Shown: positions 20,728 to 41,609, counted from the first letter of the stretch. The stretch is 64,000 nucleotides of DNA from Patescibacteria group bacterium (GCA_018817715.1 JAHITT010000004.1:125784-189783); one strand, 5' to 3'. Program-made: numbers and translations. The notes: generated from the letters alone by a model not told the origin.

Positions 20728-20737
20728 AAAATAAAAA

Positions 20738-21115: not shown

Positions 21116-21271
21116 AATTTATAAAAACCCTAATTACTAATTTCTAAATCCTAATAAAATTCAAAACCACAACTTAAATTTAATATTCTTTTATGTCATC
21201 CTGAAATTACCTGATTCTTCGTTTCGCTCCGAATGACACAATTTTTAGTTTTAATTTGTGCTTTTTATTTT

Positions 21272-21853: not shown

Positions 21854-21928
21854 AAAACTGAAGGCTAAATAGTAAGGGTGCTAATTAAAAATCCTAAATT
21901 ATAAATATCAAATCTTCAAACTAATTAT

Positions 21929-23803: not shown

Positions 23804-23841
23804 AAAATAATAAATTCAGAGTCAAAAATTATGAATAAACT

Positions 23842-24531: not shown

Positions 24532-24537
24532 AAATAA

Positions 24538-24981: not shown

Positions 24982-24986
24982 AAATT

Positions 24987-26846
24987 CTAGAACCTTAATT
25001 TTTCATTAAAATCCACTACCGCCTGGAACTCTTCTTCTGTTAAATAAATTTGGCCAACCAGCGATTGCTCGGAAATAATTTGACTGATTGATTTACCATG
25101 CTCAATACTTAGACGGCCTAAATCTAAATAATTACGATAAACCTCGGAGGCCTGCCAAGAACGAATAGCTTCAATTTTTTTAGCTATGGAAGTTTCACCA
25201 ATTAATTCTATTTTAGTTTGTATCTTACGCAAAGCCTCTGTAGGCTTAACAGACAAACGCCGAAAATCCACTAAGGTCAAGGTCTTTAATTCTTCTAAAG
25301 GACCTAAAAGTCTAGACGGCGCTTTAACATCAGTAAGTTGCGGTTTAGGTTTAGTTAAAATAACTGGCTGATCGGATTTAATAGAAGAATTTTTATTACT
25401 AACCGGACTAGCCGAACCAACAGAAACGGCAGCCGACCTGGCTAATTCTTGTAAAACTTTTTGCCGATCTAACTTAACATCTTCTTTTTTAACAAATTCT
25501 ATTTTTGGTTTTACTGTAATTTCCGGCCTAACTATAGAAGCCTGAGGCGACTCCACCTTTTTAACCACAGGTAAAGCTACTGGCTTGGCTGGTAAAACTA
25601 CTGGCAATTCAGCGGCGATTAATTTATCTATCTCTTGTTTGCCAGTTGAAATTTTAGCCGGCTTATTATTTATCTTTAACGATTGACGATCAACAATTGG
25701 CGATTCAAAATCCTTTTTAGCTTTTTCGATTATACCGGCTACTTTATCGGCTACTGGTTCACTTAGACCTAACCCACCAACAGTTACCAACTTCATTAAT
25801 GATTCCTTAACCTCTACTTGATTACGCACCTCTTTAAGCCTAGAAACAAACAATAATTCAAAGCGCCGAGCATTTACTTCATCTTTAAAACTCAAATTAT
25901 TCTTAACTATTACTTCCTTAGCAAAATCCCTTAGCCTCTCTTCTAGGGGTACTTTTGGGGTCTGCTTTGTTTCGTTAGTTTGATCTCGGTATTTATCAGC
26001 TTCTTTTTCATCAGCCTCGTCAAACAAAAAAGCAGGAGCTGATGATTTTAAAACTTGAGGAGTATTAGATGTTTCTATTTTTACTTCTTTCAACTCTTTC
26101 TTAGGTAATATTTTACTTATTATAGGACCAGCATCAGCTTCTTGTATTTCTCTAACTTGACCTTTGTCTAAAATTATTTTTTTATCATTTTCTATAAAAC
26201 TACCTTTTTCTTCTAAACCTTCTGGGGTCAAAGAAGAATGCCCTAAATAATCAAACAAGACTAATAACTTTCTTACCTCCTCTTTAACAGCTGGGTCTAA
26301 TTTCTTTAAAGATTCTCTTTGGGACATATATTGCTCCCTCTTAAGAGAATCCGATATCTCCACACCAACCACTGAAATATAATCTTTAAGCCAATCACCA
26401 ACTGTACGCAAAGAACCGCTTGCTCCGTGACTTTCCACAAAAATAGCTCTACTATTAACTAAAACCTCTTTTAAATTTTTCTTTAAAATATCTCTATCTT
26501 CGTGTATTAAAATTCTTAAAAGCTTGGCTTCTAATTTAGCCAATAAATCAATTTCATTACTTCCTAATACTACTGATAAACCCTGACGAAAAAATTCTAG
26601 TACCTCATCATTATTCAAAAAAGGTAAACACTCTCCATGCAATAACCAAATAATTTTATTATAATTATTTTTGGTTAATTGATCTAACGACTTATCTTGT
26701 TCCACAGCTGATTTTATTTTTTTTAAAAATTCATAAGAGGTTCCAATATCGTCTTGGACAATCAACCAGTTAGCATAATCAGACAATCTTTCAAAAAATT
26801 GTTGGTCTCTTAAGGGAATATTCTTTATAATATTTTGTGTAACCAT
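24987..26846 (-). CDS. Hypothetical charged or coiled cytoplasmic protein in the cluster.
   Basis: A 619-aa, K/E-rich ORF with no nucleotide-binding motif seen. It is operonic with its neighbours, with gaps of 5-14 nt. Confidence 0.4.
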   Translation of the reverse strand: MVTQNIIKNIPLRDQQFFERLSDYANWLIVQDDIGTSYEFLKKIKSAVEQDKSLDQLTKNNYNKIIWLLHGECLPFLNNDEVLEFFRQGLSVVLGSNEIDLLAKLEAKLLRILIHEDRDILKKNLKEVLVNSRAIFVESHGASGSLRTVGDWLKDYISVVGVEISDSLKREQYMSQRESLKKLDPAVKEEVRKLLVLFDYLGHSSLTPEGLEEKGSFIENDKKIILDKGQVREIQEADAGPIISKILPKKELKEVKIETSNTPQVLKSSAPAFLFDEADEKEADKYRDQTNETKQTPKVPLEERLRDFAKEVIVKNNLSFKDEVNARRFELLFVSRLKEVRNQVEVKESLMKLVTVGGLGLSEPVADKVAGIIEKAKKDFESPIVDRQSLKINNKPAKISTGKQEIDKLIAAELPVVLPAKPVALPVVKKVESPQASIVRPEITVKPKIEFVKKEDVKLDRQKVLQELARSAAVSVGSASPVSNKNSSIKSDQPVILTKPKPQLTDVKAPSRLLGPLEELKTLTLVDFRRLSVKPTEALRKIQTKIELIGETSIAKKIEAIRSWQASEVYRNYLDLGRLSIEHGKSISQIISEQSLVGQIYLTEEEFQAVVDFNEKLRF

Positions 26847-26860: not shown

Positions 26861-29800
26861 TTATTTGATTTTTAATATTTTTTTAATATCATCAAATTCG
26901 TCATGCATACCTGTACCATAATTTCGAACACGACCCATAATTGATTTAAATTGACCATACTGACTTCTAGCAATAATACCTGTTTTTTGGGCTAAATTAT
27001 CTAAATTTTCTAAATTATTATTAGAACCAACTTTAGTAGCTAGGTTAACATTAAAACGACCTCGACCCATCATATCAGGATATTTTGAATAATTTTCTAA
27101 AATATAAGCTTTACCAAAATCGTTCAATTCGAATTTTCTATTACGATGTTCTCTATAATATTTGGCTTTTTCTTCGCGACTAGCGTCAGCTGGCAAATTA
27201 CCATACTCAATTACTTCACGCCCATAAGCCAAACGATTTGCTCGACGGCTAAAGTTTTCAAAATCCTGTTTTCTAACTTCAGCTAAACATTCAATCATTC
27301 TCTCATCTTCATCAGCCCATTCTAAACGACCATTTTTTACATTAACAGCCCTAGCTACACCCCAGTGCTGTACACCTTCTCCGGTATAAGCTATATCACT
27401 AGCGACGGACAAAGCTTGCTCCCTAGCCATACCTAATTTTTTAATAAATATATCCTCAACAAATTGTTTTAACCCACCAGCATCTGAATCATAACCATAC
27501 ATATTAAAAAATTCATTCTCATTTCCATATTCTGTAGCTTTCAAGGCAGCTGCTGCCGCTCGATTAGAATCACCCACATGAACAGCATCTTCAAATATTT
27601 TAAATAATTCTTCCCAGTTATCTGTCGTCATATCACCCTTTTCTTTATTAATAGCCAAACGTTGATCGCGCCTAATACCATAATCAGTTGATGGGCTAAA
27701 TTTTTCTGCACTTTTACCTAAGACACCCGCTTCGTCTTTTAATTGTTTAATTTGTCTATTAAGCTCATCTAATTCACCCGCACCAACTGCCGAAGATTTA
27801 AAGTTTTCTTGCAACTTTTCCGCCTCTTTCCTTAATATAGATGCTTGTTTAATATTCTCGTCTTTTTCTTTTTTAGTAAGTTGGTCATTTCTTCTCAAGT
27901 TTTTCAAATCTTCATCAATTCTTCTTAATAAATCATTATCCTTTTTTAATAATTCATTAATTTCTTGCGGTGTTCTGCCTTTAACCTTCTCTTGAGTTCG
28001 ACGGTTTTCTCTATCTTTAATAACATCTTTTTTTTGTTCCTCTAATTTATCAATTTCCTTTTTTCTACTGTGTCTTTGTTGTTTTGTTAATTTGTCTGGA
28101 CCTAAATTATCAGCCTCAATTAATAATTTATCTATATCATCTTTTAGCTCATTGTTTTTTAAATCAGCCAATTCACTATTAGGTAATAACAATTTTTTAT
28201 TTATATCATCTAATTTTTTTCGTGCTTGTGAAAATTTCAACCTATTATTCTGTAATAATTTTTCTTTTCCCGAATCAGTACTCATGATATCTATTAACTT
28301 AGATAACTCATCCGCCTCCTCTTGTTTTTCCATAGCCTGACTGACCTTACCTTGCCCTTGAAAATTAGCCATTTCCTTTTTTAAAGATTCGAGATGAACG
28401 TGAGCCTGTTTAATATTTCGACCATCCTCAATCATTTTATAATCATCATCAAAAACCTTCAATTCTTCCTCAAATAATTTTTGACCTCCTAATAATTCTC
28501 CCCTATAAGAACCTCCTTTATCTCGCATTTTTAACTGCTCTTCTAATGCCTTAGCTTGCTCCAATTTTTCTTGTTGCTGTTGATAATGTTCAGCAGCTTT
28601 TTTACCTGTTACTTCATCCATATGCCCCGTAGCCACCTTACCCAAGGTACGCCAATTCCACTGATGTTCAAATAAATGCTCGGGCGAGCCCAATACTTGC
28701 CAAAAACTGCCTTTTTCCCGACGTTTAGAATAAACACTTTGACGAATAGTATCTCGTGATTCTTCACGCTTATGCTTACCCGCTTCCCAACCATGCTTCC
28801 ATTTTTCAATTGAACCTTGTACACCTAAACGAGCGGAAGCTTCTGACCACAAATAACTACCCAATTCCTTGGCTCCTTTACCAGCTAAACCAGCCACCCC
28901 CTTAGCCACTGTAAACGGCGATTTAACTATAGACGAACCTATACTCTGCATTTTAGCCAAGGCGCTACCGGCTAATTTACCACCCGCCACACCTAATTTT
29001 TGTGTCATCCACAAACCACCCAACAAAATAACAATATTAATTATAAAAGACAGTAAAATCTCTGATTGACCAATGCCGGTTATAGCCACCCCTGGCACAT
29101 CTTTAAAAGAATAATCACTTCCACTCTGACCGACAAAAGAATCCAAAACATTATTAGAGGTTTGCATCATGGACAAAGCCAACCATAGAAAAAAAGCTAA
29201 AATCGGACCAGCTGACAAATATTTACCAAAATACTCCCACCATTCTGAAGAATATTTTTTAGCTTGCCCAGGAAAAGCTGCTAACAAAAAAGCCAAAGGA
29301 GACATAATAGTTAACAGCCACAAAAAAGCTATTCGCACCAAAAAAACCACTAAATAAATAGCCACCACCACCATAGCCACAGTTATACTGATAAGAGCTA
29401 AAATACTGGCCACAAAAAAACTGTTTTCATTCGGAGTAGCTCCTTCAATGGTCTTGCTTTTAGAGAATTCAAACATTTCCGACAAATGAAAACCATTCAC
29501 CAAATTGCCAGCGGCCGCTTCTTTAAAACCATTAACAAAAGTCAACATGACCACCTGAGCAAAATCAATAAAAAAACCGGTTAACATTTTGGAAAAATTA
29601 ACCAGCACCGACATTATTAAAAGTTTACTTAATAGTTTTTTATATTGATACTCTTCTATGCGAAAAACTGTGGCAAAAGCTATAACCAACATCACCACGA
29701 TAACAAACATGTTGGCTAGATCCCTAATAATTACCCAGCCCTTAGCTACGGCCGGAGCATTTATAAAATCATTATATTGAACTATGCCAATTAAAATGCC

Positions 29801-29989
29801 AATTAAAGTAACGGTTAAACCACCAATAAATTCGGCCAAAGGCAGTATTAAATTCTGTCCTAACCAGCTACCAAAATTAGCTGAGGCAGTTGTTGGCAAA
29901 AAAAGTCCTAAACCCAAAATTAAAACCAAACCCAGCAAAAAACCGGTTTTTTTTAAGCTTATTTTAGTAAAAACCTTTGCTAGGTTCAT
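26861..29989 (-). CDS. VirB6/TrbL-like polytopic membrane protein with a long C-terminal coiled-coil/charged extension.
   Basis: 1042 aa. The N-terminal ~400 aa have 7 or more TM helices, starting after an N-terminal signal-like TM. A ~350-aa coiled coil rich in E/K/Q and a ~250-aa globular C-terminus follow. Confidence 0.5.
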   Translation of the reverse strand: MNLAKVFTKISLKKTGFLLGLVLILGLGLFLPTTASANFGSWLGQNLILPLAEFIGGLTVTLIGILIGIVQYNDFINAPAVAKGWVIIRDLANMFVIVVMLVIAFATVFRIEEYQYKKLLSKLLIMSVLVNFSKMLTGFFIDFAQVVMLTFVNGFKEAAAGNLVNGFHLSEMFEFSKSKTIEGATPNENSFFVASILALISITVAMVVVAIYLVVFLVRIAFLWLLTIMSPLAFLLAAFPGQAKKYSSEWWEYFGKYLSAGPILAFFLWLALSMMQTSNNVLDSFVGQSGSDYSFKDVPGVAITGIGQSEILLSFIINIVILLGGLWMTQKLGVAGGKLAGSALAKMQSIGSSIVKSPFTVAKGVAGLAGKGAKELGSYLWSEASARLGVQGSIEKWKHGWEAGKHKREESRDTIRQSVYSKRREKGSFWQVLGSPEHLFEHQWNWRTLGKVATGHMDEVTGKKAAEHYQQQQEKLEQAKALEEQLKMRDKGGSYRGELLGGQKLFEEELKVFDDDYKMIEDGRNIKQAHVHLESLKKEMANFQGQGKVSQAMEKQEEADELSKLIDIMSTDSGKEKLLQNNRLKFSQARKKLDDINKKLLLPNSELADLKNNELKDDIDKLLIEADNLGPDKLTKQQRHSRKKEIDKLEEQKKDVIKDRENRRTQEKVKGRTPQEINELLKKDNDLLRRIDEDLKNLRRNDQLTKKEKDENIKQASILRKEAEKLQENFKSSAVGAGELDELNRQIKQLKDEAGVLGKSAEKFSPSTDYGIRRDQRLAINKEKGDMTTDNWEELFKIFEDAVHVGDSNRAAAAALKATEYGNENEFFNMYGYDSDAGGLKQFVEDIFIKKLGMAREQALSVASDIAYTGEGVQHWGVARAVNVKNGRLEWADEDERMIECLAEVRKQDFENFSRRANRLAYGREVIEYGNLPADASREEKAKYYREHRNRKFELNDFGKAYILENYSKYPDMMGRGRFNVNLATKVGSNNNLENLDNLAQKTGIIARSQYGQFKSIMGRVRNYGTGMHDEFDDIKKILKIK

Positions 29990-30258
29990 AAATTAGTTTA
30001 AAGTTTTTAAACTTAAATTTTAAGTTAAAAAGCCTAACTTAACCACTTTTATCATACCACAGTTTTAACTAAAAAAGACAGGCACTATTACCTTAATTAT
30101 ACCATAATTTTATATTTTAAGCAAGAAAAACACTCCTCTAAATACCCTGACCACAAAACAACTCCTCCAAGCAAATATTTAAAACCGACCCTCCTATTTT
30201 TGGACACCATTTCTCGTCAGTGCAAAAAAGACGTCCTAAGTAAAACTAAATAATAAAT

Positions 30259-30284
30259 AACGCCACTTAAGTGGCGTTATTTTT
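30259..30284 (-). terminator. Terminator-like hairpin just after the stop of the giant gene.
   Basis: aacgccac-ttaa-gtggcgtt forms an 8-bp perfect stem with T/A-rich flanks on both sides. Confidence 0.4.
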
Positions 30285-30303: not shown

Positions 30304-33300
30304 CTAATTCTTGGGCTTAACAATAATTCGTTTAGGATAATAATCAGCCCGAGCTGACCAATTAAAACCAGTATTAATGCTAGGCAATTTATCTTCATAT
30401 TGTCCATTATCCTTAGCCCACCAACCCCAGTTGTCCCGCAAAGCTACACCGGGTTTATAAACACAAGCCTGCAAAGTACTATCCCAATTTAAATTATTTT
30501 TACCACTACAAGTATAAGTAGTAGTATAAAAGAAATAACCTACTTGATTATCCTGATCGGCCACACAAGCTTCGGGACTATCACCAAAGTTAAAAGCTGG
30601 ATTGTTAAGACAAGTCTTACCGCTTGCACATTGTTTGTCCGTAGTGCAAGGTGTGGGTGTACCAATACAAACCTTGGGTGACTGACAGATAGGTTTATGA
30701 TTTCTTAAAGAAGCTTCCACTTCAATATTTCTAGATTTACCCAAAGCACCATTAATACCCCAATCTACACCCACAAATCTGATAGGCATTTGATTACCAT
30801 TGGGGTTATAACCATAAAAAGATAAAGTAATCGGCAAAGGACTTTGACCCATAATATCCTCACTAGTATGACTGGTACCAGAATAAGACACGGTTACTTT
30901 AGCACCAGCATCTTGACCCATGGTTTTACCTTTAGCATCAAAAGACACACCCGCTATAACAGGGGCTTGCGGTTCCACTACGCCCGGAATAGTCTGATTG
31001 CTTAAATCAAAACTACCACCTGGTAAAGTTATGGGAATATTAAATATCGGAATAGTAAAAGTTATAGGATCTTTAGGCAAGGCTTTATATTTGGCTGTGG
31101 CAGTATCCCAATTAAAAGTATTGTAAAACTTAACAAACAAATTCTTTATTAAATTAACTCCGCCAATACTACTCGTTGGCAAACTTAAGGCTGGGCTGGT
31201 ACCCGTACACATAAAAGGAGTTTTCTGAGTGGGACAAGGTTGGCCAGTCGAAGAATCACAATGAACCGTTGGATCATAATAGCCACAGAATCTGTTTTCG
31301 CCAGTGGCCGCTGGATCACACAACGATTTATCTTTGTTTATTGTTATATTAGGATTATCTTTATCTGGCACACCAGCTAAACACATCCAACCACTACAAC
31401 TGCCCCCACCGGCGCCACTACAACCATAAACACCCGGGGCATAAGGCTGAATTTCATTACTAATTAAAGGTTGATATTGAGCTACTGGTATTACCCTGGT
31501 CGGTTCCAATTCCGGACCTAAATGTCCTGTGTATTCAAAAGTAGTGGAAGATGGTACAAAAGCGCCAAAAGGTGCATTTAAATAATGATTAGCTTTACTA
31601 CCGGCGGTAGCATAAGTATAACCAACCTGGGGCACCACATAATTACTTAATTCATTAACCCGATTAGTTTGAGCCTTGTTATTAATAACATCATTAGGAT
31701 TAGAACTGACTACTTGGGCCACCACATCACACCACTCTCGCAAGGTATATTTAAGAACTATATAAAAATCGGCCGCCCCACCTGGATCTTTATCATTAAT
31801 CCGCAAAGTTAAATACTTATCCGGATCATTAGGATTAAAAACAGCAGTCATAGAACACAAACCCTTACCATCACTATCACAACTGTAACGATTTACCTGA
31901 TCGCTTAATTTATAACGACTAACAATTAAACGTGAGCGTTTATTATTACTATCGGTTTGACCGTATTTTCTAAAATGACCTTCAATTTCTATACTCTCAA
32001 TGGCATCTAAACCACCCAGTTGTTTTTCCAAACCGCCCAAACTTAAAGCAAAAGACATTTCATAATCCACTTTACCGGAAATTATTAATGGTGCAAAAGG
32101 TTGACCAGTCTTAGCTGGAGAAAAAATTCCCGTTAAGCCGAAAAGGCTAAATGACTGACCACCTACATTGGGACACACCTTATCTTTACCATCCCAAGCC
32201 GTGCTAGCATTCGGACTATATAAACAATCAGTAGTTGGGCCAGTTACCACATCACTAGGCGCTAATGGTACACCCTGAACCGACCGAGCGTTCTCGGGAA
32301 GAAAAGTAATCGGCTGAGGATTATCCAAATAATAAAGCTGACTCTGCTTAGAAGTTGTCTGAGCCAAACCACGAGCAGCGGCACAATAATACATAGCCTG
32401 ATTACCTGGTGACACAAAACCGGCTTTAGGCCTATCATCATAAATAGAAACTTCACCTTGTACCACATCTATCGGTAGCCAAGTTAAACAAGCGTCATCG
32501 GCGCCGTTATTTATTTTGCGAGCTGAATCTTTTTCTAAACAATAACCCTTTAACCCTTGAGCAAAAGTTATTTGTTTTAAGGCGCTTTGCTCCTGCTTGG
32601 CTTCTAGACAAGGTTCGCTGCCAGATAAAGAACCAGCACAAACCTCACCTACCGGATTAATCGGGTCAGTAGGCTGGCTACGATAATTATAAAACCTAGT
32701 TTCACCATTCTTATAAACCGCCCGTTGATAAGCGCACTCACAATTTTCATCTGGATCAGTACTTGGCTGACAAACATTAGCGTCTTTATAACCAGGCGCC
32801 CGGCTCATTAATTTAGCTTCTTTGCTTTCTGAATTCCAAGTAGCCACATTAGCTGGGAAGGGGGCGTCGGGCTCGGGATATAAGCGACAAGCTTTGGTGC
32901 TAGCCAAAGAAACTGCACAAGCTGAACTGGAATTAATAGCATCTAAAGAACACAAACCTGGTATAGAATAGCCAGTGTAATCCTGGCCAGCCCAAGTGGT
33001 GTTCCGCCCGATATAATCCGCTTCATCCAAAGGATGCTGTTCTGACTGCGGTTCTAACCAATTACCACAACCGCCAGCCGCATTGCCACTACTAGCCTGA
33101 TTACAACGACCCAAAGAATAACATAATTCCCGAGGCTTGCCAGCCGAATCGGTAATGGTCGTGCTAGTCTGACAACTTAACCACTCAGCACAAACCCGAT
33201 CACGCTGAACTTTTAAGATAGTATTAGCACTAGGTTGTTGACCTTGAGTAAACGAACAATAAACATTGTCACCTAAACAATCAGCAGTTTTTTGACAAGA

Positions 33301-36300
33301 ACGACTAGGCTCACTAGAACAAACCCCACGAGGCGCTAAGGGTGCTACCTGAGCATTATCTTGGCTACGACTTTGTTCATAAGTTAAAGGAGCAGACCAA
33401 GCTAAATCGCCACCCAGTGACAAATCGGTTACTAACAAACAACCATCTTTTTCACCAACTTTACCACCGCAAGTGGAACGATCCAATTTACCATTATCCA
33501 AATAATAATAAGTCCGGTTGGTTAAAGTATTGTCCTGGAAAGCTTTGCAAGACGAAGCTTCAGCTGGACAAGTATAAGCATAAGGCACAGCCAAAAACTC
33601 CTTAGCTTGATCATTAGTTAAACTATTAGGCAATTCTAATAAACGAACATCATCCACATAAACAGTGCTAGTTTGACGTAAACTACCTTCGTTAGTTATT
33701 AAACCAACTGATAAGGTATCAATATTAGGCTTAGTTTTTATAATATAAGTTCGATTGAGCCAAACTCCTTTAGGATCAGTGACTACAATTGTTGGATTAC
33801 CAGCCACCATCTCATAATGATGACAAGTACCCCCACCGCAACCCGTACCGACTTTGGGATAAGCGTGCCTAGACAAAGACCAACTACCCTGCAGAACTTC
33901 TTCCTTGGGTAAATAAATTTGAGCGGAAACTAAGAATAATCTTTCTTGGTTTTTAGGTTCCACTGTCACATGGGAGGACCAAACGCCAGAATATTGCTGA
34001 TCTGAAGTGGCTTTAACCTTAAGCAAACTACCACCCCAATATTGACCGTTTAAGGATCCTTGAGCGTATAACTGACCCTTACCATCTTCTTGACCGGCGC
34101 CATTTCTTTCCCAGCCGACAAAATAATCTTGAGTATTATCGTTTATTTGACCAGAACCCTTCAGGCCACTTATACCGGCAAAATTTTCAAAACTACCATT
34201 AATCAAAAGATTACAAGGCTCGGTTGTGCCAGTCTTGTACCAATCATAAGATTGGCCAGCCCGAAGTTGTTTATATTCACAAGTTCTAGAACCAGGATCT
34301 TTAAAATAATAAGTACTATTACCAGCTTTATATTCCTGACAACGATCTTGTTCTTTAGAACAAAGAGGTGAAGTTGGTCCAGCGGCAAAATTATCCGGAT
34401 CTAAACGCATAAATTTATCTGACCAACCCTGCAAAAATCCAGCAGCCGTAAAACTCGGTTCACCCAATCTTTGGCAAGATTGCATTTGTGCCGAACACTG
34501 TTTAGTCCGATCATAAATACGGTAAACCACCTGATCTTTAGCTGTGGTGACAGTCTGCCCGCCTACGGTAACTGTTTGCAATTGAGGACTTAGAGAATTT
34601 TTAGTGTCGACCAAAGCTTCACAACCAACAGCTTCTTGACGGCACAATTTAGAAAAACCAGTAAAAGAATAGGCTCGATTCTGCCTATCTTTATAAGATC
34701 GGCAACCTAAATATTTTAATTGATCGCCGTTAGGCTGACAGCTTGTCGGCGTAGTCCAAGAATCTTTTTTCAAAAAGAACCGGTCACCAACTTCTTGCAC
34801 AGCAATATTATCAGCCACAAATCTTACACCGGCCGCGGCCAATTGCACCCTGACACCTTGGCTAATATTGGCACTGGTTGGTAAAGTAACTGGTCCAATA
34901 GTATAAAGTTGCCAATCATTAGTTAGTTCGGAAGCTGGTAAATTAAAATTAATAGTTGCTTGAGGATTCAAACTGGATTCGGCCGCACTAACATAATTAA
35001 CTGTATAAGTTAAAGATCCGTTGTCAGTCAAAATACCATTAACTGGTCCACAATCATTACCAATACAAGTCTGGCTACCACCGGGATTAGCTTCTACGGA
35101 ATAAACTGTGGCACCACTAGTGCCTACTGGATTACCTGAACGCCAAATAAAATTAAAATCTCCTGATGGCTGATTGGAACGTATTACTAAACCAGTTATG
35201 GGAATATTACTACCAGCCGTATTGTTATTTAAACTGTAAGCTCCACCACCAGCCACTGGCTGACCATTCAAAGTCATTTTTAAATAAACCGTGCCTTGGT
35301 TGGTGACCACAGGATCACCCGACCCAGTGCCAGGGGGGGTAGTAGGTGTACGTGGGGTACTAACAACAGTTGTTAAACCTTTGGATTCACCACCACTATT
35401 ATAAGCCCTAACCTGATAAACAAACCGACCATCCAAACTTAAACCTTTGTTTTGACCATCAACAGGATCTACTCCTAAATCCGGAAAACTAACCGCGCCG
35501 GCATTGGGCAATACTTGAATAAGTTTAACGGCCCGACCATTATCGCCCCGATAAACAGTAAAACCAGTTTCATTATCACTACTATCTTGCCAATTTAAAG
35601 TAGCCTTATATTGACCGCTAGGACAATCGCCCGAACAAATCGCTAAACTGGCGGTTAAACCAGTAGGCGCAATTGGTAATTGAATATTTTTATTAGAACC
35701 AACATCTTTAGGTAAAGAAAAGAAACCAGTGCCAGAACCCGCCTGGGCAACAAAAGTATCTACTAAAAAGTAAGAAAATTTACCCCCATCACTAATTGTT
35801 TGACCAGCCAAATTTTTAGCCGTTACTCGCCAAGCATAAGTACGGCCTGGCTCTAAACCGATAAAATCACTTGCTGCTAACCCAGCCACGGGCAAACTTA
35901 AAGTAAATCTATCAACATCATTTTTTCGGCCAATTTCTTGCCAACCATCAGCTAAAGTTGATTTATCGTCATAGTGCATCAATTGAACATCATACTTATC
36001 AGCATAATTGGCCCGCTGCCAAGTCAAAACCGGATTATTAGTATTCACTTTAGCGTAATTGTCCTGACTGCCGTGCGGATCTACCGTAGCAAAAGCCTGC
36101 GGTGGCACCTGAGTAATAAATTCAATAGCTCTTTCCGTTGGCGTGCCAGCGCTATTGTAAGCCACCACCCTAATTTTAGTAGCCTGACCTAATTTAATTG
36201 CTCCAACATTAACCGGCATAGTCAATTCCGTTTTGGCTAAAGCGCGCCAAATAACTGGCGTGCCATAAGGTTGTTCAATAATTACTAAATAATTAACAGC

Positions 36301-39300
36301 GTCGCTGGAAGCTCCCCAAGCAACAGTAAAGGGTAAGGGCATGCTCTTTTTTTCGTCCTCAGGTGTGGTTGGATCATCGGCTGGTGAATAAATATCAAAC
36401 GGTTTAGCAGCCAAAGAACCGGTAGTAAAAGTAATAGTTTTTTCTTCTGTTTTAGAACTATCATTTTTAGCTATTACCCTAACTGTATAATTAGTATTGG
36501 CTGATAAAATATTACCAGGTACAGTAAAACTGGTAGCTGTAGTTGTAGTACTATAAGCTGTACCACCAGTTATAGAAATATCATACTTGTTAGCCCGTAA
36601 AGAACTCGTCCATTGAATAGTTGGGCTTAAAACCTGATTACTAGAACCGTCGACCGGTACTGTAATATTAAATTTACCTGGTGGGTTATTTACTTGAACT
36701 GGCGCCTGCCGATTAACAGTCGTTGTACCATTATAAACTACTGTTAAATCATAAGTTTTAGAAATCGGTAAAGTATAACCATCGCTAAAACTTTGCGTGG
36801 GTAAATTAACATTAATGGTACCTGATTTGGGTCCAGTGGGAGCTGACTGACAAACCGGTGTCTTATCTATACAATCATCTTTAACACCACAAACCTGACC
36901 AGACTTAAAACCAGAATCACATTTACTAACAGTGGATAAACATTGGGCACTAGGATAACGACAGTCGCTATCCAAAGAACAAATTTTGGTATTTTCGTTA
37001 GAACAAATCTTTTTAGTTGCTTGACAAAGAGCCGTAGTACTACGACAAGGAGTAGTATCGGTTCCTACGCAAGCAATGGCATTATTATTGGAACACTTAT
37101 TATCCACACAGGTGGCGGTGGTATTCCGACAGTCACTATTACCATTAGCTATATTACAAGCGCTATCGTTATAAGGCCCACCTACACATTTATAATCAAC
37201 AGAATTACAAGTAGCTGTGGGTTGCTGACAAAAATTATTGTCTGTCGGCGAACAAGTTTTATTTATATTTAAACCGCTAGTACATTTAAAATCCTGCGGC
37301 ACACAAGCCGGCGTTAAATCACGACAAGCATCATTATTAGTACAAGGATTATCGGTCTTAGAACCGGCATAAAAACAACGACTGTCGGCCTTAAAAGAAG
37401 TACTTAAAACACCAGGAATATTAACAGTAATAGCGTCCGTGGCTGTAGTGGAGGCTGACCAGCTTAAATTGGTAGAAAAAGCATTAGCAAAACCAGTATT
37501 ATCAAAAACCGACGGACTAGCCTGCAAAGCTACGGTGGCGGTTTGAGCAATGGCTTCGCTAATAAAAGTCCAATTGCCAAATAAATTTTGCCAAGCTAAT
37601 TTATTGGCCTTAATTAAAGAATTAACCAATTGGTTAGACCAGCTAACTTTAGCCGGCAAGTTGGTTGTTAAAGTAACTGCCGGAACTTGACTGCTAGTCT
37701 CCGCCAAACCCAAACTGCTTTTTTTGGCCCAAACAGACACTAAATACTGTTGGCCTAAAACTGCCGAACCAACGACATCTTTATAAATTGCTCCATCCGT
37801 ACCCGAATCATAGGAATGTCCAAAAGCTGAAGTAGACTCGTTAGATGGCGTACCTGAATACCAGCCACTAGAAGGTGCTGCATCATAAGTTACACGAGCT
37901 GTGGAATCCTTATCGCCAAAAGTAGATAAAGGAAAAACTAATTTTACACTATTAGCATTAGGGCCTTTATACTCACGGCAACCATTATATTGCACAGAAC
38001 ATTTTTTACCCTCCTGTGGTATAGCTCGATAATAACAAGCGTTATTTTCCCAATTACCCCCTGTGGCTAAACAATCAACTTGATTGCCTTCGGTTTTTCG
38101 ATAACGTGTACAACTACTGGAAGCGGTAACTGTTTTAGAAGCCAAACGATAATAAACCTGGCCATCAGAAGCGTATAATTGTTTACAATCTGGATTACTG
38201 GTTGGCCAACTACCACTTAACCGACAATCTCCTGAATTATCCGTAGTTACTGGGCCGGTGGCCTCGAATTTTAATTGCCAAGCCTTAAGTTGATAACCAG
38301 TTAAATCTGAACCAACCCAAGTATAATATGTCCTATCACCCTCCCCCGGCTGAACACACTGCCTAAGTTCGGTAAAATATTCTTTTTGTTCACCTAAACC
38401 AACATTAGTAAACTCACTACAACCCACCGCCTCAGCCGGACAAGTTTGAGCAGTTTTTGTTATAAAATATTTAACTGATTTATCTGACGGATTAAGCTTG
38501 GTTGGCTGTTGTTCATAAGCCTGATAACCCACGCACTCCCCCGGACAAGTATAATCCGGATGCGGTTGACCGGGCACGGCCGGTGTGCCATCCAACGGTG
38601 TATAAAGCTCACAACCAACTTCACCAGCCGCACACCAACCTATATATTTAGCACACTCTGGGGAATCATTTTTTAAATCATTGTCATAACACTTTAAATA
38701 ATCGGGCGCCTGTTTTAAATAAACTTCAGCTGTTGTGGCATAGGTTGAATAATCCTGACCTGACTGACTTGTCACCTGATTAACCACTTTTTCCACCGGA
38801 TTAGCCCCGGCAGCAGTTAAACTAGTTGAAATATTACTTAAACGAAGTAAAGCCGTACAACCTTCGTCATTAGACGAACAAGAATAACGATCTATATTCT
38901 TGGCATACAAACGACTATTTAAATCATACCGGCCTAAAGAAGTATCCAAAGAATTAAAAGCCGTGGAATACCACTTACAACCAGTTGCACCAGTACAATT
39001 ACCATCATTAAAACTGGCTAAAGAATTAGTTAAGTAAGAAGCCGAACCGCCACCGCTAGAAGAAAAAGTTTGGCAAGAAGCAAAAGGCGCCTGACCAGAA
39101 TCCCTGGGGAATTCACAACTGTCGCCACCTAAACGCCAAACATTTTTTTCTTTAGTACAATAACCCCAAGAAGCGCAAGTTCCATCAGGATTTTCCACCA
39201 CACAGTTCTGCGTATCCACACAAATATCCTGACGATTAGAACCCTGTTGTTCCAATATTTGCCCGGAGCCTTGCAAACGACACTGGGCCAAAGGGGCTTT

Positions 39301-40731
39301 AATAATCCAATTAGGATCTATTAAATGATAATAAGGGTTGGTTTGATTAACGTCGTTATTTAAATAAGGTTGGCCAAAATTAGATAAGACTTCATTCAAG
39401 GTAACACCCCGTGAGCCAACTTTTTGCGTAGCCAATTCCCAACCCAAAGGCAAAATCCTGGCCAAACGTAATTTTTTAATATCTGAAAGATACCAAGCAT
39501 CCGGTGTTCTAATATTACGCGGCCTGTCCAATTTAAACACCCAATTACCATTAAGCAATCCAGCGTCCACGGCTTCCTGAACCGTTACTGCTTTACCTTC
39601 TTGAGCCTGACGTAAGGCTCTTTCGAACTTGGAATCAATTGTACAATTATTAAGCGCTGCATAATCCTGATTTTGTGGACAATTGGAAAATTCACTTATG
39701 ACATCAATTGCTTCACCACCAACTATCTGCGGCATAGCAATTAAAGTATTAATTTTTGTGGCGTAATCAGTACCGCTACCGAATTCAGCGGCAAAAATTG
39801 AACCCTTACCAATAGAAGCCGGATTAGGTATTTCTCCTTCCATTAATCTTTTTAATAAACGGGCGGCTAAGGTATTAGTAAAAGTTCCCAAAGCATCAGC
39901 CATAATATCGCCAGTAAACACTAAAGGCTCGGCCAAAGCTTGCTGAAACGACCAGTCCTTAGTATTAGCCACACTACGAGCCGGTGTTTTAATAAAACCA
40001 GTAATAGATTGAACTATATCTTTGTAACCCTGATTAGATGTTTGCTCTAATTTAGCCAGTTCTTTTTTAGTATTAACATCTTTAATTAAATTTTGCTGAA
40101 TATTTAAGGATACACCCAAATCATGTTGCTTGGGATCTAAAGAAACTTTAAAATTCTTTAAAAAATTCTTACGCTCTATTGGATCATTCAAAGCTTTGTC
40201 CCAATTATTTCTTAATTGGCTTAAGGTACACTTAGGTACTGGCGGTTTTTGCTCTTGAAAAGCTGTTAAGCCAATAATTAACTTAACCGAAGGAGCGCCC
40301 GGGCCACTTGGCTGACAAACATTAAAATTACCCCAGGCGTCGCCACTGGTTATACCATCTAAAAAATCTCCCGCCGCCGCATCACCAGCATCCTTAACTG
40401 ATTGCCCTAAATTTTTCCAAGTAAAAAGCGGAGTTTGACCAGTACCACCCGAAGCCAACATTACAGCCGCATCATAAGCTATTTTTTGCGTAAAAGTCCG
40501 GGCAGCATTCCTAAAACCAATAGCTGCCCCATGTTCCAAAGTCCAACTAACAGCTGACTGAACCTTTTCCCAAATAAAATTAGCTAATTTTATTGGGGCA
40601 CCCAAAATATCTGATACTGGAATCGCCTGAGCAGGCCGAGCTGTTAAGGTAAAACCTCCCAACAAAACAAAAATTATGGCAAAAATTGTTGCTATTTTTT
40701 TGAGTGTTTCCCAAAGGGAGTGTTTAAACAT
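30304..40731 (-). CDS. Giant secreted multidomain surface protein (3475 aa) with a signal peptide, FN3-like modules, EGF-like Cys-rich repeats and beta-rich domains. It is a candidate adhesin or tip/cargo of the T4SS-like system.
   Basis: The ORF is uninterrupted for 10.4 kb and begins with a signal peptide (...LTARPAQA|IPV). FN3-like repeats containing YxVxVxAxN are encoded at about nt 35900-36800. A Cys-rich module with spacings of the CxxxxC..C type is encoded at about nt 36850-37400. Cys is abundant throughout. Confidence 0.8.
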   Translation of the reverse strand: MFKHSLWETLKKIATIFAIIFVLLGGFTLTARPAQAIPVSDILGAPIKLANFIWEKVQSAVSWTLEHGAAIGFRNAARTFTQKIAYDAAVMLASGGTGQTPLFTWKNLGQSVKDAGDAAAGDFLDGITSGDAWGNFNVCQPSGPGAPSVKLIIGLTAFQEQKPPVPKCTLSQLRNNWDKALNDPIERKNFLKNFKVSLDPKQHDLGVSLNIQQNLIKDVNTKKELAKLEQTSNQGYKDIVQSITGFIKTPARSVANTKDWSFQQALAEPLVFTGDIMADALGTFTNTLAARLLKRLMEGEIPNPASIGKGSIFAAEFGSGTDYATKINTLIAMPQIVGGEAIDVISEFSNCPQNQDYAALNNCTIDSKFERALRQAQEGKAVTVQEAVDAGLLNGNWVFKLDRPRNIRTPDAWYLSDIKKLRLARILPLGWELATQKVGSRGVTLNEVLSNFGQPYLNNDVNQTNPYYHLIDPNWIIKAPLAQCRLQGSGQILEQQGSNRQDICVDTQNCVVENPDGTCASWGYCTKEKNVWRLGGDSCEFPRDSGQAPFASCQTFSSSGGGSASYLTNSLASFNDGNCTGATGCKWYSTAFNSLDTSLGRYDLNSRLYAKNIDRYSCSSNDEGCTALLRLSNISTSLTAAGANPVEKVVNQVTSQSGQDYSTYATTAEVYLKQAPDYLKCYDNDLKNDSPECAKYIGWCAAGEVGCELYTPLDGTPAVPGQPHPDYTCPGECVGYQAYEQQPTKLNPSDKSVKYFITKTAQTCPAEAVGCSEFTNVGLGEQKEYFTELRQCVQPGEGDRTYYTWVGSDLTGYQLKAWQLKFEATGPVTTDNSGDCRLSGSWPTSNPDCKQLYASDGQVYYRLASKTVTASSSCTRYRKTEGNQVDCLATGGNWENNACYYRAIPQEGKKCSVQYNGCREYKGPNANSVKLVFPLSTFGDKDSTARVTYDAAPSSGWYSGTPSNESTSAFGHSYDSGTDGAIYKDVVGSAVLGQQYLVSVWAKKSSLGLAETSSQVPAVTLTTNLPAKVSWSNQLVNSLIKANKLAWQNLFGNWTFISEAIAQTATVALQASPSVFDNTGFANAFSTNLSWSASTTATDAITVNIPGVLSTSFKADSRCFYAGSKTDNPCTNNDACRDLTPACVPQDFKCTSGLNINKTCSPTDNNFCQQPTATCNSVDYKCVGGPYNDSACNIANGNSDCRNTTATCVDNKCSNNNAIACVGTDTTPCRSTTALCQATKKICSNENTKICSLDSDCRYPSAQCLSTVSKCDSGFKSGQVCGVKDDCIDKTPVCQSAPTGPKSGTINVNLPTQSFSDGYTLPISKTYDLTVVYNGTTTVNRQAPVQVNNPPGKFNITVPVDGSSNQVLSPTIQWTSSLRANKYDISITGGTAYSTTTTATSFTVPGNILSANTNYTVRVIAKNDSSKTEEKTITFTTGSLAAKPFDIYSPADDPTTPEDEKKSMPLPFTVAWGASSDAVNYLVIIEQPYGTPVIWRALAKTELTMPVNVGAIKLGQATKIRVVAYNSAGTPTERAIEFITQVPPQAFATVDPHGSQDNYAKVNTNNPVLTWQRANYADKYDVQLMHYDDKSTLADGWQEIGRKNDVDRFTLSLPVAGLAASDFIGLEPGRTYAWRVTAKNLAGQTISDGGKFSYFLVDTFVAQAGSGTGFFSLPKDVGSNKNIQLPIAPTGLTASLAICSGDCPSGQYKATLNWQDSSDNETGFTVYRGDNGRAVKLIQVLPNAGAVSFPDLGVDPVDGQNKGLSLDGRFVYQVRAYNSGGESKGLTTVVSTPRTPTTPPGTGSGDPVVTNQGTVYLKMTLNGQPVAGGGAYSLNNNTAGSNIPITGLVIRSNQPSGDFNFIWRSGNPVGTSGATVYSVEANPGGSQTCIGNDCGPVNGILTDNGSLTYTVNYVSAAESSLNPQATINFNLPASELTNDWQLYTIGPVTLPTSANISQGVRVQLAAAGVRFVADNIAVQEVGDRFFLKKDSWTTPTSCQPNGDQLKYLGCRSYKDRQNRAYSFTGFSKLCRQEAVGCEALVDTKNSLSPQLQTVTVGGQTVTTAKDQVVYRIYDRTKQCSAQMQSCQRLGEPSFTAAGFLQGWSDKFMRLDPDNFAAGPTSPLCSKEQDRCQEYKAGNSTYYFKDPGSRTCEYKQLRAGQSYDWYKTGTTEPCNLLINGSFENFAGISGLKGSGQINDNTQDYFVGWERNGAGQEDGKGQLYAQGSLNGQYWGGSLLKVKATSDQQYSGVWSSHVTVEPKNQERLFLVSAQIYLPKEEVLQGSWSLSRHAYPKVGTGCGGGTCHHYEMVAGNPTIVVTDPKGVWLNRTYIIKTKPNIDTLSVGLITNEGSLRQTSTVYVDDVRLLELPNSLTNDQAKEFLAVPYAYTCPAEASSCKAFQDNTLTNRTYYYLDNGKLDRSTCGGKVGEKDGCLLVTDLSLGGDLAWSAPLTYEQSRSQDNAQVAPLAPRGVCSSEPSRSCQKTADCLGDNVYCSFTQGQQPSANTILKVQRDRVCAEWLSCQTSTTITDSAGKPRELCYSLGRCNQASSGNAAGGCGNWLEPQSEQHPLDEADYIGRNTTWAGQDYTGYSIPGLCSLDAINSSSACAVSLASTKACRLYPEPDAPFPANVATWNSESKEAKLMSRAPGYKDANVCQPSTDPDENCECAYQRAVYKNGETRFYNYRSQPTDPINPVGEVCAGSLSGSEPCLEAKQEQSALKQITFAQGLKGYCLEKDSARKINNGADDACLTWLPIDVVQGEVSIYDDRPKAGFVSPGNQAMYYCAAARGLAQTTSKQSQLYYLDNPQPITFLPENARSVQGVPLAPSDVVTGPTTDCLYSPNASTAWDGKDKVCPNVGGQSFSLFGLTGIFSPAKTGQPFAPLIISGKVDYEMSFALSLGGLEKQLGGLDAIESIEIEGHFRKYGQTDSNNKRSRLIVSRYKLSDQVNRYSCDSDGKGLCSMTAVFNPNDPDKYLTLRINDKDPGGAADFYIVLKYTLREWCDVVAQVVSSNPNDVINNKAQTNRVNELSNYVVPQVGYTYATAGSKANHYLNAPFGAFVPSSTTFEYTGHLGPELEPTRVIPVAQYQPLISNEIQPYAPGVYGCSGAGGGSCSGWMCLAGVPDKDNPNITINKDKSLCDPAATGENRFCGYYDPTVHCDSSTGQPCPTQKTPFMCTGTSPALSLPTSSIGGVNLIKNLFVKFYNTFNWDTATAKYKALPKDPITFTIPIFNIPITLPGGSFDLSNQTIPGVVEPQAPVIAGVSFDAKGKTMGQDAGAKVTVSYSGTSHTSEDIMGQSPLPITLSFYGYNPNGNQMPIRFVGVDWGINGALGKSRNIEVEASLRNHKPICQSPKVCIGTPTPCTTDKQCASGKTCLNNPAFNFGDSPEACVADQDNQVGYFFYTTTYTCSGKNNLNWDSTLQACVYKPGVALRDNWGWWAKDNGQYEDKLPSINTGFNWSARADYYPKRIIVKPKN

Positions 40732-40743: not shown

Positions 40744-41457
40744 TTAAAAACCAAATAACTGTTTAACCGTAGCCTGCAAAGTAGTGTCATCTATTATATC
40801 TAATTCCTTAGCATCGGCGCCGCCAGCTATTAAAAACTGCCTTAATTCAGCACCGGACATTTTTTGTAAAAGCTCTTTTTCTTGATCCGTTAACTGAAGA
40901 CTGGTATCTAAAGCTCCGGCTGACCCTGTAGTTGCTTTATTTTCACCAGCCACTTGCTGATAAATATTAATTAATGTTTGGTCATTATATTTAGCCAACA
41001 TTTCATCAGTGGCGCCGTTATTCTTAAGCATTTGCCTAATTTCCTCGGGACTGGGCGCTGCTTCAACATCATAACCAGCGGTTTCTGATTGGCTAACTGG
41101 AGCCACAAATTTTAAACAATCCTGACCTTGAGGACAATTAGGATCACTACCATTATCCACTTCCGCTTTGTCATCTAAACCATCTGAATCAGTATCTTTT
41201 AAATAAAGACTAGTCCGGTAAAAATTTATTTCCTCATAATCAGACAAACCATCACCATCCGTATCACTAGCCCGTAAAACCGTTTCATTAGCTACTGTCA
41301 TTTGACTATCGTCATTGTAAATTTTGGGTGCAAAGGGCAATTTTATTGAATTACTAATCTGCCAAACTCCGAAAACTACTGCCAATAAAGCTATGGTGGC
41401 CAAACCCCAATTATGCCCAGTCGGCCCGTTTATTTCGGAAATATCTTGCTCGGCCAT
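40744..41457 (-). CDS. Membrane-anchored protein with calcium-binding DxDxDG repeats (thrombospondin type-3-like).
   Basis: 237 aa with an N-terminal TM and the repeats DTDGDGLSDYEE and DTDSDGLDDKAE. Only 12 nt separate it from the giant gene. Confidence 0.45.
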   Translation of the reverse strand: MAEQDISEINGPTGHNWGLATIALLAVVFGVWQISNSIKLPFAPKIYNDDSQMTVANETVLRASDTDGDGLSDYEEINFYRTSLYLKDTDSDGLDDKAEVDNGSDPNCPQGQDCLKFVAPVSQSETAGYDVEAAPSPEEIRQMLKNNGATDEMLAKYNDQTLINIYQQVAGENKATTGSAGALDTSLQLTDQEKELLQKMSGAELRQFLIAGGADAKELDIIDDTTLQATVKQLFGF

Positions 41458-41609
41458 TGTTTTAAAAAATAATTTTTTGAAAAGATTTGGAATTAGCTAA
41501 ATCTCAAAACAAAAAATACTCTAAAAGATATCTGAATTATATCACATCAACACCCAAATGTCAAAAGCCTTCAAAAACAAAAATCCAGCTTCAAGAGTAA
41601 AAAAATGTT

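Follow-up and report, generated by a model that had tools for sequence, protein, structure and literature searches.

A family of giant, cysteine-rich, predicted secreted proteins encoded with a TSP3-repeat partner, usually next to type IV secretion-like genes, in Patescibacteria

A 64,000-nucleotide stretch of DNA from a Patescibacteria group bacterium (GCA_018817715.1, JAHITT010000004.1:125784-189783), referred to below as the window, contains a giant open reading frame (ORF) that lies on the minus strand, at 30304..40731, next to a block of genes resembling a type IV secretion system (T4SS). The ORF starts with ATG and encodes 3475 aa with no stop, including 116 Cys (3.3%); the mature protein, termed here the giant, would have a mass of ~371 kDa and a pI of 5.6. 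Only one hydrophobic segment is present (aa ~12-31), followed by ARPAQA|IPV, and there is no further transmembrane segment. A preliminary description of this DNA had claimed an uninterrupted 10.4-kb ORF of 3475 aa, which was found at exactly these positions, and the Cys-rich peptide that it quoted, KCTSGLNINKTCSPTDNNFCQQPTATCNSVDYKC, is located at aa 1149-1182. In the direction of transcription, the genes around the giant in the window, all on the minus strand, include in order: ComM-like ATPase, leucyl-tRNA synthetase (LeuRS), Sua5, major facilitator superfamily (MFS) transporter, KsgA, a TSP3 protein designated the partner, the giant, the T4SS-like block, and RadA.

The partner gene (40744..41457, minus strand, 237 aa) ends 12 nt before the ATG of the giant. 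Its product harbors an N-terminal transmembrane helix (aa 16-38), a TSP3_bac match of 35.7 bits (cutoff 25), two DxDxDG TSP3-type calcium-binding motifs (DTDGDG at aa 65 and DTDSDG at aa 88), a CPQGQDC pair, and an acidic helical tail, in agreement with the earlier report of a calcium-binding anchor protein adjoining the giant. A synteny survey of 80 metagenome loci, together with individually fetched contexts (numbered with the prefix L), revealed a TSP3-like transmembrane protein directly upstream of the giant in 48 of 49 loci, and also in L002, L005, L006, and L008. A sigma-70 consensus promoter (TTGACA-17-TATAAT, with TG before the -10 element; 41536..41564, minus strand) is positioned in the gap between ksgA and the partner gene; it matches the consensus at 12/12 positions and is the only one to do so in 17 kb. 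Promoter matches of at least 11/12 were found upstream of the partner in 19 of 49 loci, compared with 0 of 49 controls taken inside the giant gene. Past the stop codon of the giant, an intrinsic-terminator-like hairpin with a 12-bp stem and a T-rich tail (30255..30282, minus strand) begins after ~20 nt, and a hairpin of at least 8 bp followed by a T tract was present within 120 nt of the stop in 31 of 73 loci versus 0 of 73 controls. Since the promoter precedes the partner, the terminator follows the giant, and both signals recur across loci, the two genes most likely constitute a separate, strongly expressed bicistronic unit, with a transcript apart from that of the machine genes, which heads the T4SS-like block. 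The previous placement of the giant inside a T4SS-like operon is therefore probably incorrect: the two signals bracket the pair, and ~15% of loci have no T4SS genes downstream.

An exhaustive HMMER search with aa 1-1100 of the giant as the query matched 1426 cluster representatives at E<=1e-3 and 1117 at E<=1e-30, the clusters being defined at 50% identity. The best 150 of these matches were nearly all 2000-3800 aa long. Word-indexed searches saw few of these relatives (three with the N-terminal 520 aa, five with the C-terminal 1075 aa, and nine with a 20-sequence profile). A size that had been considered unusual for reduced genomes is thus common in this family, which comprises more than 1400 sequence clusters and whose large members have a median length of 2827 aa. 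In the source databases, the relatives are named 'hypothetical protein', 'carbohydrate binding domain-containing protein', or 'CBM-cenC domain-containing protein', and all of those with a named organism belong to the Patescibacteria: Candidatus Kerfeldbacteria, Uhrbacteria, Magasanikbacteria, Buchananbacteria, Peregrinibacteria, and Parcubacteria/Patescibacteria group bacteria. No homology of the family to known giant surface proteins or T4SS adhesins was detectable, and it appears not to have been described previously. The closest comparison is provided by an orthologue in MAG186, a GTDB species representative ('Patescibacteria group bacterium') assembled from a metagenome. This orthologue is collinear with the giant and stop-free over aa 1-3079, up to the end of the contig, with the rest of the protein on a second contig; it shares 73% identity overall and retains 100 of 100 alignable Cys. 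The genes 5' of the giant have the same order in the orthologous metagenome-assembled genome (MAG): ComM, LysM/M23 peptidase, LeuRS, Sua5, MFS, KsgA, TSP3 protein, and giant. An error-prone ENA contig also retains the synteny, with the giant interrupted by frameshifts. In unrelated metagenomes, 49 of 52 ORFs that were closed at both ends measured 2525-3545 aa. The homologous region of L004 is occupied by two ORFs (2505-10004 and 10001-13366; 2499 and 1121 aa) with a 4-bp overlap, and three metagenome loci contain only ~770-aa ORFs near module C (described below); genuine splitting of the gene, programmed frameshifting, or errors in sequencing may account for these cases.

Alignment of 156 members onto the giant resolved a mosaic of four conserved modules, separated by non-conserved stretches. 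Module A (aa ~37-1010; 37702..40623, minus strand, as are all features of the ORF below) was found in ~150 of the 156 members and consists of a helical N-terminal ~300 aa, an alpha/beta subdomain (aa ~345-475), and Cys-rich beta regions, ending with the first half of a jelly roll (aa ~925-1010). Module B (aa ~1930-2190; 34162..34944) is Cys-rich and present in ~145 members. Module C (aa ~2400-2800; 32332..33534), a Cys-rich beta region with no PDB relative, is present in 70-136 members; its invariant motifs include DRxC[AGS][EQ]WLxC, and a single degenerate pattern derived from this module retrieved 342 confirmed relatives in metagenome contigs. Module D, at the C-terminus (aa ~3250-3450; 30382..30984), was found in 36-52 members, contains Cys, and ends in a conserved beta-strand motif. 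A loose hydrophobic-strand pattern, typically W-x-x-F-x-G-x-I-x-V-x-P, fits the C-terminus of 69 out of 132 members, and the giant has no C-terminal LPXTG. No relative of modules A-D was accepted in Pfam, NCBIfam, or PDB; module D gave a weak Myxo_Cys_RPT match (E 2.8e-4), below the cutoff. Domain scans and segment-wise structure prediction, which had been suggested in the preliminary description, yielded a weak fn3 match (Pfam and NCBIfam) and AlphaFold2 models with an overall predicted local distance difference test score (pLDDT) of 62-64. With family alignments, module A was modeled at a mean pLDDT of 63.8, with long helices near the N-terminus and good prediction of two subdomains (aa ~345-475 and ~765-915), and the B-C block at 62.4, with well-predicted beta-sandwiches; the confident subdomains alone were used.

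The modules are connected by junctions of very different lengths. The A|B junction has a median length of 24-25 aa (114-116 members) and a maximum of 204 aa, versus 926 aa in the giant, whereas the B|C junction ranges from 6 to 892 aa across the family, and the C|D region is always present (197-688 aa) and unconserved. Within the C|D region lies a hypervariable patch (aa ~2800-3040; 31612..32331), in which identity to the MAG186 orthologue dips to 22-44% versus 73% overall, and returns to 77% at aa 3039-3458. In a second close pair, the identity of the C|D region is 44% versus ~65%; these two pairs are suggestive of hypervariability between close relatives. In one family member, P0052, module C is directly followed by a stretch that resembles by eye a Hint/intein-like domain (CFTGKTLILMADG ... 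YFADGFYVHN), a sign that at least one giant may process itself or contain an intein.

The N-terminal 36 residues (40624..40731) display the features of a Sec signal peptide cleaved by signal peptidase I, according to a heuristic call: a KK n-region (aa 11-12), a 19-aa h-region (aa 13-31), and Ala at positions -3 and -1 of ARPAQA|IPV. An N-terminal hydrophobic segment occurs in 132 of 138 family members, and the motif P-x-P-A-x-A|Q in 70 of 137, so that the previously claimed cleavage site, AQA|IPV, is present and its AxA pattern is conserved, as would be expected of a cleavable signal. The h-region is long, and the N-terminus could possibly act as an uncleaved signal anchor. Cys residues are the best-conserved feature of the family, with ~90 near-invariant positions in modules A-C. 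All 31 Cys of module A are conserved in at least 91% (mean 98.8%) of 100 members that share ~35-50% identity, 10 Cys of module B in 97-100% (30 members), and most Cys of modules B and C in 93-100%. The variable Cys are gained or lost as adjacent pairs, with phi = 1.0 for C2520-C2537, C2654-C2664, and C2698-C2708 and phi = 0.73 for C681-C693, values that are inflated by relatedness and shared deletions; such pairwise co-variation is the pattern that would be expected of disulfide partners. Moreover, within the gene cluster, only predicted extracytoplasmic proteins are rich in Cys: the giant contains 3.3% and two pilin fusion proteins of the T4SS-like block 5.4% and 4.0%, compared with 0-0.4% in cytoplasmic proteins. 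Taken with the export signal, these observations support the earlier view that the giant is probably an oxidatively folded extracellular protein.

The exceptional length of the A|B junction in the giant is explained by a clade-specific nested insertion of ~900 aa (aa ~1011-1900; 35032..37701), common to only 2 of the 156 members. The family consensus reads Y-x-L-S-F-W-A-K on one side of this junction and W-x-x-Y-x-x-G-P and F-x-I-D-N-I-x-L-x-E on the other; because of these flanking motifs, the insertion apparently sits within a family-conserved jelly-roll domain and splits it. Its N-terminal part includes six tandem ~30-aa units with four Cys each (C-x7-10-C-x5-8-C-x6-C; 24 Cys in total, about aa 1117-1300; 36832..37383). 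This dense block, whose Cys extend over aa 1119-1294 (nt ~36850-37380), is located where the preliminary description had put it (nt ~36850-37400), and its labels were revised: neither the EGF-like label (~40 aa with six Cys) nor the cystine-knot label (six Cys) fits such units, and no EGF or other Cys-repeat model of Pfam or NCBIfam matched the block even at E<=5. The following part comprises four FN3-like units (aa ~1352-1436, 1440-1535, 1538-1645, and 1675-1775; 35407..36678). Pfam and NCBIfam scans of overlapping 500-aa segments, and then of each putative module at E<=5, recognized fn3 as the sole family. The fn3 profile (PF00041) matched aa 1358-1434 with 26.4 bits in the whole protein and 32.8 bits in a 500-aa segment (cutoff 25), and the first unit scanned alone gave 23.1 bits (E 8.7e-5). 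The third unit was sub-threshold (17 bits, E 0.007), and the second and fourth, which had no Pfam match, are FN3-like by eye alone. Thus, of the at least three FN3 modules claimed earlier (nt ~35900-36800), one exceeds the Pfam cutoff. A weak match to tenascin FN3 was obtained in PDB (E 0.017), and units 2-4 are among the least conserved parts of the protein relative to the orthologue (47-62% identity). The FN3 and Cys repeats, which the preliminary description had highlighted, therefore lie outside the core of the protein, in a lineage-restricted addition of a small clade.

A further variable element occupies the B|C junction, where aa ~2215-2399 (33535..34089) were modeled as a beta jelly roll resembling carbohydrate-binding modules (CBMs) of type CBM4/9, with pLDDT 70-86. 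A Foldseek comparison with PDB matched it to CBM4-2 (2y64; E 7.7e-4, probability 1.0, target-normalized TM-score 0.57) and further to CelK CBM4, CBM27, CBM16, and CBM6, with target-normalized TM-scores of 0.45-0.60 and E-values of 8e-4 to 2e-2 across CBM4/CBM27/CBM16. No Pfam hit to PF02018 (CBM_4_9) was obtained for this region of the giant, while some relatives have weak or faint precomputed PF02018 hits and CBM source names. By sequence, the jelly roll is common to ~14 of the 156 members. Modest structural similarity in the model thus points to a CBM4/9 (CenC)-type fold.

Downstream of the giant, the T4SS-like block starts with a gene for a 1042-aa polytopic membrane protein (26861..29989, minus strand), with ~8 hydrophobic segments in aa 1-330, which is a putative VirB6/PrgH analogue. 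Its earlier designation as VirB6-like is consistent with its topology and position, and finds no counterpart in profile searches, since no Pfam TrbL/VirB6 match was obtained even at E<=5. In Southlakia, a member of the Saccharimonadia, a 1088-aa protein in a comparable position is tied to TrbL/VirB6 by a weak structural match only (PMC10633639 supplement). The rest of the block (15463..26846, minus strand) is co-oriented and was annotated with Pfam. Homologues of the 1042-aa protein were found downstream on the same strand in 39 of 46 loci with at least 3 kb of flanking sequence. Of ten loci with at least 8 kb of flank, all contained PrgI and a TraC-like gene, and nine contained VirB4. Without exception (135/135), the T4SS hits downstream have the same orientation as the giant. 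On the other side, ksgA was located within 3.5 kb upstream in 37 of 41 loci. The full order is illustrated by L006, a 1.06-Mb contig: LeuRS, MFS, KsgA, TSP3, giant, five genes, PrgI, TraC-like, VirB4, one gene, and DsbA. This conserved co-oriented linkage with VirB4, PrgI, and VirB6-like genes assigns the giant, by gene neighborhood, to an MPF-FATA-like T4SS cluster; the giant itself had no match to T4SS (mating-pair-formation) profiles in Pfam or NCBIfam. The gene content of the window's block agrees with the T4SS of monoderm type (MPF-FATA-like) described for Patescibacteria, including the linkage to radA reported for class ABY1 and the ksgA gene often found nearby (PMC12102498).

Based on this combination of features, we propose, giving the idea an even chance of being correct, that the giant is a Sec-exported, disulfide-stabilized, glycan-binding host-contact protein that is held by its calcium-binding partner and works with the T4SS-like machine. 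The proposed mechanism has five steps: (i) Sec would export the giant, which would be cleaved behind the conserved AxA site; (ii) it would fold outside the cell, forming some 50-60 disulfides with the aid of the DsbA-like oxidoreductase of the cluster; (iii) it would be held at the surface by the co-transcribed partner, through the N-terminal membrane anchor and TSP3 calcium-binding repeats of the latter, which is proposed as the anchor because the giant has none of its own; (iv) modules A-D would serve as a rigid scaffold shared across Patescibacteria, with binding modules that differ between lineages placed at its fixed junctions (jelly rolls of the CBM4/9-like type, FN3 units, 4-Cys repeats, and the hypervariable patch at aa ~2800-3040), and these binding modules may target host-surface glycans or proteins; (v) the giant would act with the MPF-FATA-like T4SS-like machine and its VirB2-like pilins as a host-contact or docking element of an epibiotic lifestyle. 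The host-contact role is favored because the giant precedes T4SS-like genes in ~85% of loci, because it contains CBM/FN3-type modules, and because no other adhesin is recognized. In the single Patescibacterium tested, epibiotic growth required T4SS genes (PMC10633639), and a survey of Patescibacteria T4SSs detected no adhesin and no PrgB-like protein, leaving profile-less neighbors unanalyzed (PMC12102498). A broader and more tentative extension, which we hold with less than even confidence, is that a phylum-wide, hitherto unannotated two-gene module, composed of a secreted protein of ~2600-3500 aa (some 2000 residues of novel, disulfide-locked folds plus plug-in binding modules) and a calcium-binding anchor, constitutes the extracellular half that has been missing from the T4SS-like apparatus of Patescibacteria. 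It might recognize or dock hosts or provide a passage for the machine, and its insert repertoire and hypervariable patch might encode host range in classes other than Saccharimonadia.

Several observations weigh against a host-contact role. The conserved modules (~2000 aa) match no known fold or domain, and their conservation across classes (35-50% identity) is above that usual for adhesins. In 7 of 46 loci, as well as in L007 and L008, the downstream flank (~4-10 kb) has no T4SS genes while the order ksgA-partner-giant is kept; together with the pair's own promoter and terminator, this means that T4SS adjacency could reflect conserved gene order rather than function. The studied T4SS cluster of Southlakia, a member of the Saccharimonadia, has no giant and no protein larger than ~1100 aa (PMC10633639 supplement). 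The CBM-like match is modest (E ~1e-3), the model that contains it has a mean pLDDT of 62, and the jelly roll is shared by sequence with few members. Finally, the signal-peptide call is heuristic, and anchoring by the partner is purely inferred.

Of the roles named in the preliminary description (pilus-tip adhesin, surface layer, or host attachment), adhesin and surface layer remain the two leading readings, the former evenly balanced and the latter possible but doubtful. The second of these holds that the pair forms a two-component surface coat, a surface layer (S-layer) or canopy similar to SlaA/SlaB, in which the giant makes up the outer lattice on a stalk formed by the partner, with no involvement of the T4SS-like machine; variable inserts would then result from pressure by phages or predators rather than from host recognition. 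A bicistronic unit with a perfect promoter and a strong terminator, signals that recur across loci (near-consensus promoters in 19/49 and terminators in 31/73) and are absent from controls, would suit a structural gene with very high expression. The constant location beside ksgA (37/41), the order ksgA-partner-giant kept where the downstream flank has no T4SS genes, the very wide distribution of the family, and the unusually high conservation of the scaffold point in the same direction. S-layers often depend on calcium and often have a distinct subunit as their anchor, as in SlaA/SlaB, which also speaks for a coat. No S-layer gene has yet been identified in Patescibacteria, whose envelope 'remains unclear' (PMC5220378). 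Against a coat stands first the position of the pair, directly before co-oriented T4SS genes in 85% of loci. Modules A-C, with their strong conservation and ~90 near-invariant Cys, also differ from S-layer proteins, in which Cys is usually scarce and sequence divergence rapid. No SLH, CWB2, or other S-layer domain was found in Pfam and NCBIfam scans, and 370 kDa is unusually large for a lattice subunit.

Alternatively, the giant could be a released exoprotein or effector that attacks the host cell wall or forms pores, is exported by Sec, becomes delivered or activated where the cells touch, and is possibly passed to the T4SS-like machine from outside the membrane, as in pertussis toxin/Ptl. 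This is consistent with the Sec signal, the lack of a membrane or wall anchor and of LPXTG, the CBM-like modules (typical companions of glycan-active enzymes), and the adjoining T4SS genes; the ~2000 conserved residues, with invariant D/E/R/W/Y positions, could hide a catalytic site, and the Hint/intein-like stretch seen by eye in P0052 would suit autoprocessing. Nevertheless, we consider an effector improbable, given that no catalytic domain turned up and that the partner is anchored in the membrane.

The idea that the ORF arose artificially, through a chimeric assembly, a collapsed repeat, or sequencing errors that joined several genes, draws on the unspecified type of the assembly, which was judged without reads, and on the two ORFs of L004 and the ~770-aa ORFs of three metagenome loci, and it is effectively excluded by an independent MAG with a collinear, stop-free orthologue that keeps all alignable Cys, by 49 independent loci with ORFs of 2525-3545 aa, by >1100 cluster representatives of like length and identical module order, and by the absence of repeats. 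No DNA tandem repeats were found in the gene by Tandem Repeats Finder and no long internal protein repeats by BLASTP self-comparison, which rejects a repeat collapse; the misassembled repeat with internal stops that the preliminary description had named as a way to overturn its finding is contradicted by the repeat-free gene, the stop-free orthologue, and the long ORFs, and misassembly is unlikely. As ~5-6% stop codons are expected in a random frame of DNA with 37-41% GC, 3475 stop-free codons would not be compatible with chance. The GC content across the gene (window 30000-40000) is 0.40-0.43 versus 0.32-0.38 in the neighboring genes. This is probably a composition effect of a protein rich in Gly/Ala/Pro/Thr/Ser/Cys rather than a sign of foreign origin, which is disfavored because the synteny is conserved.

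Comparison with known systems reveals partial resemblances. PrgB, the aggregation substance of pCF10 and a surface adhesin of the Gram-positive conjugative T4SSs, is also a Sec-exported surface protein encoded with an MPF-FATA-type T4SS (PrgI, VirB4), is thought to make the cell-cell contact that the machine needs, and belongs, like the Patescibacteria system, to an apparatus that has no outer-membrane core complex. However, PrgB has ~1300 aa, is LPXTG-anchored, and is Cys-poor, whereas the giant has 3475 aa, 116 Cys, a separate partner, and its own promoter and terminator; searches of the giant for PrgB-like features found no C-terminal LPXTG, no related Pfam domain, and no sequence or fold similarity. 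CagY, from the cag T4SS of Helicobacter pylori, resembles the giant in its very large size, its association with a T4SS, and its surface-exposed repeat regions, which contain Cys and are reported to vary between strains (PMC10706595, PMC3585145). It is homologous to VirB10 and extends across the two membranes of a diderm, unlike the giant, which has no VirB10 domain or homology. The modes of variation differ: CagY varies by repeat recombination, which is not the case for the giant since its gene has no DNA repeats, and the giant varies by insertion at fixed junctions and in the hypervariable patch. The SlaA/SlaB pair of Sulfolobales is likewise a two-gene unit with a large secreted subunit, a small transmembrane-anchored partner, strong expression signals, and a part played by calcium or glycans at the surface. 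There is no homology, and the giant pair has the anchor gene first, an N-terminal anchor helix, an extreme Cys content, and T4SS linkage in 85% of loci.

The RTX/BAP-type adhesins of Gram-negative bacteria (LapA, SiiE, and MpIBP) are likewise giant, modular, and calcium-associated, with Ig/FN3-like and sugar-binding modules that serve attachment. They are nonetheless Cys-poor type I secretion substrates with C-terminal RTX signals and near-identical repeat arrays, whereas the giant is predicted to be Sec-dependent, has essentially no tandem repetition, and consists mostly of unique conserved sequence. With CBM4/9 (CenC) modules, the likeness is confined to the best-predicted part of the B-C model, which superposes on CBM4-2, CelK CBM4, CBM27, and CBM16; these modules account for <200 of 3475 residues, and no glycoside hydrolase is attached. 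Giant genes of Omnitrophota, located beside type II secretion, T4SS, or pilus-like gene sets, were proposed to act on prey or host envelopes (bioRxiv 10.1101/2023.11.21.568195), and they resemble the present family as very large secreted proteins of ultra-small, host-dependent bacteria encoded near secretion genes. By their description, they are set apart by belonging to another phylum, by being ~ten times larger (tens of thousands of aa), and by their rarity, while the giant family is common, conserved in length and order, and equipped with a dedicated partner. The FhaB-domain proteins of >5000 aa of Patescibacterium danicum were considered and set aside as a different, non-conserved class, described as lacking full-length homologues (PMC11809585). 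PMX.50_00003 of a cultured Paceibacterium, which is highly expressed and combines a signal peptide with a galactose-binding fold (PMC10936435), may be a member of the giant family.

A considerable part of bacterial diversity belongs to the Patescibacteria (the candidate phyla radiation, CPR), whose cells live in attachment to those of a host; their contact molecules are undefined outside a few Saccharimonadia, and the architecture of their envelope is unsettled. The ORF of the window is individually ordinary for its lineage, and giant modular surface proteins and T4SS-associated adhesins are already known kinds; the family that it reveals bears on the host contact or the envelope of non-Saccharimonadia CPR and supplies a concrete, testable candidate for a host-contact structure or a surface coat. 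The variable modules could be used to predict host range from genomes, and if the giant is merely a generic large adhesin, the family still annotates thousands of 'hypothetical' giant genes. The ~2000 conserved residues with no known fold are, in addition, a target for structural biology.

The remaining genes of the T4SS-like block are all on the minus strand. The 1042-aa gene is directly followed by a gene for a 619-aa protein, and then by PrgI/VirB3 (24538-24981; Pfam), a TraC-like protein of 229 aa (23842-24531), a VirB4-like TraG-P-loop ATPase (21929-23803; Pfam), two small transmembrane proteins, a 523-aa T4SS_pilin fusion (19207-20778; Pfam), a PD40 beta-propeller protein, a DsbA-like thioredoxin (16943-17593), a 496-aa T4SS_pilin+VanY fusion with a VanY/M15 D-Ala-D-Ala peptidase (15463-16953), and RadA (14101-15453). 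The DsbA gene mentioned in the preliminary description is thus present, on the same strand as the PrgI, VirB4-like, and T4SS_pilin genes. In L006, the giant/T4SS block has a DsbA-like thioredoxin gene on either side (2113-2790 and 28249-28697), and the window has one inside the block. An association of Dsb genes with this Cys-rich secretome thus recurs. Canonical VirB2 pilins have ~100 aa; both T4SS_pilin (VirB2-like) proteins of the window (523 and 496 aa) possess a signal or transmembrane segment and a Cys-rich N-terminal domain with 28 and 20 Cys, respectively. The 523-aa ORF starts with TTG and is overlapped by 41 nt by a 125-aa ORF (20738-21115), and its true start is probably further downstream.

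On the far side of the giant, the ComM-like Mg-chelatase ATPase is encoded at 48532-50058 (minus strand). RadA and the ComM-like gene, which are associated with recombination and competence, bracket the block, and T4SS loci of class ABY1 are reported to co-localize with comF, recG, and radA (PMC12102498); because of this arrangement, and because the named relatives (Kerfeld-, Uhr-, Magasanik-, and Buchananbacteria) fit, the data hint that the organism of the window belongs to ABY1. A protein with two LysM domains and a Peptidase_M23 domain is encoded upstream of the block on the plus strand (47312-48535) and at the same place in L002. As Patescibacteria VirB1-like hydrolases carry M23/LysM domains (PMC12102498), it may be the cell-wall hydrolase of the T4SS-like system. 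Small 23S_rRNA_IVP/bAvd-like genes or genes for GIY-YIG endonucleases were observed in L006 (1699-2079, 7807-8175, and 22519-22890), L001 (9017-9187), and L007 (9611-9916 and 20181-20486). The former are dispersed over the ksgA-giant-T4SS region in one genome, the latter occur on both sides of the giant in a second one, and selfish or accessory elements seem to accumulate around the giant locus.

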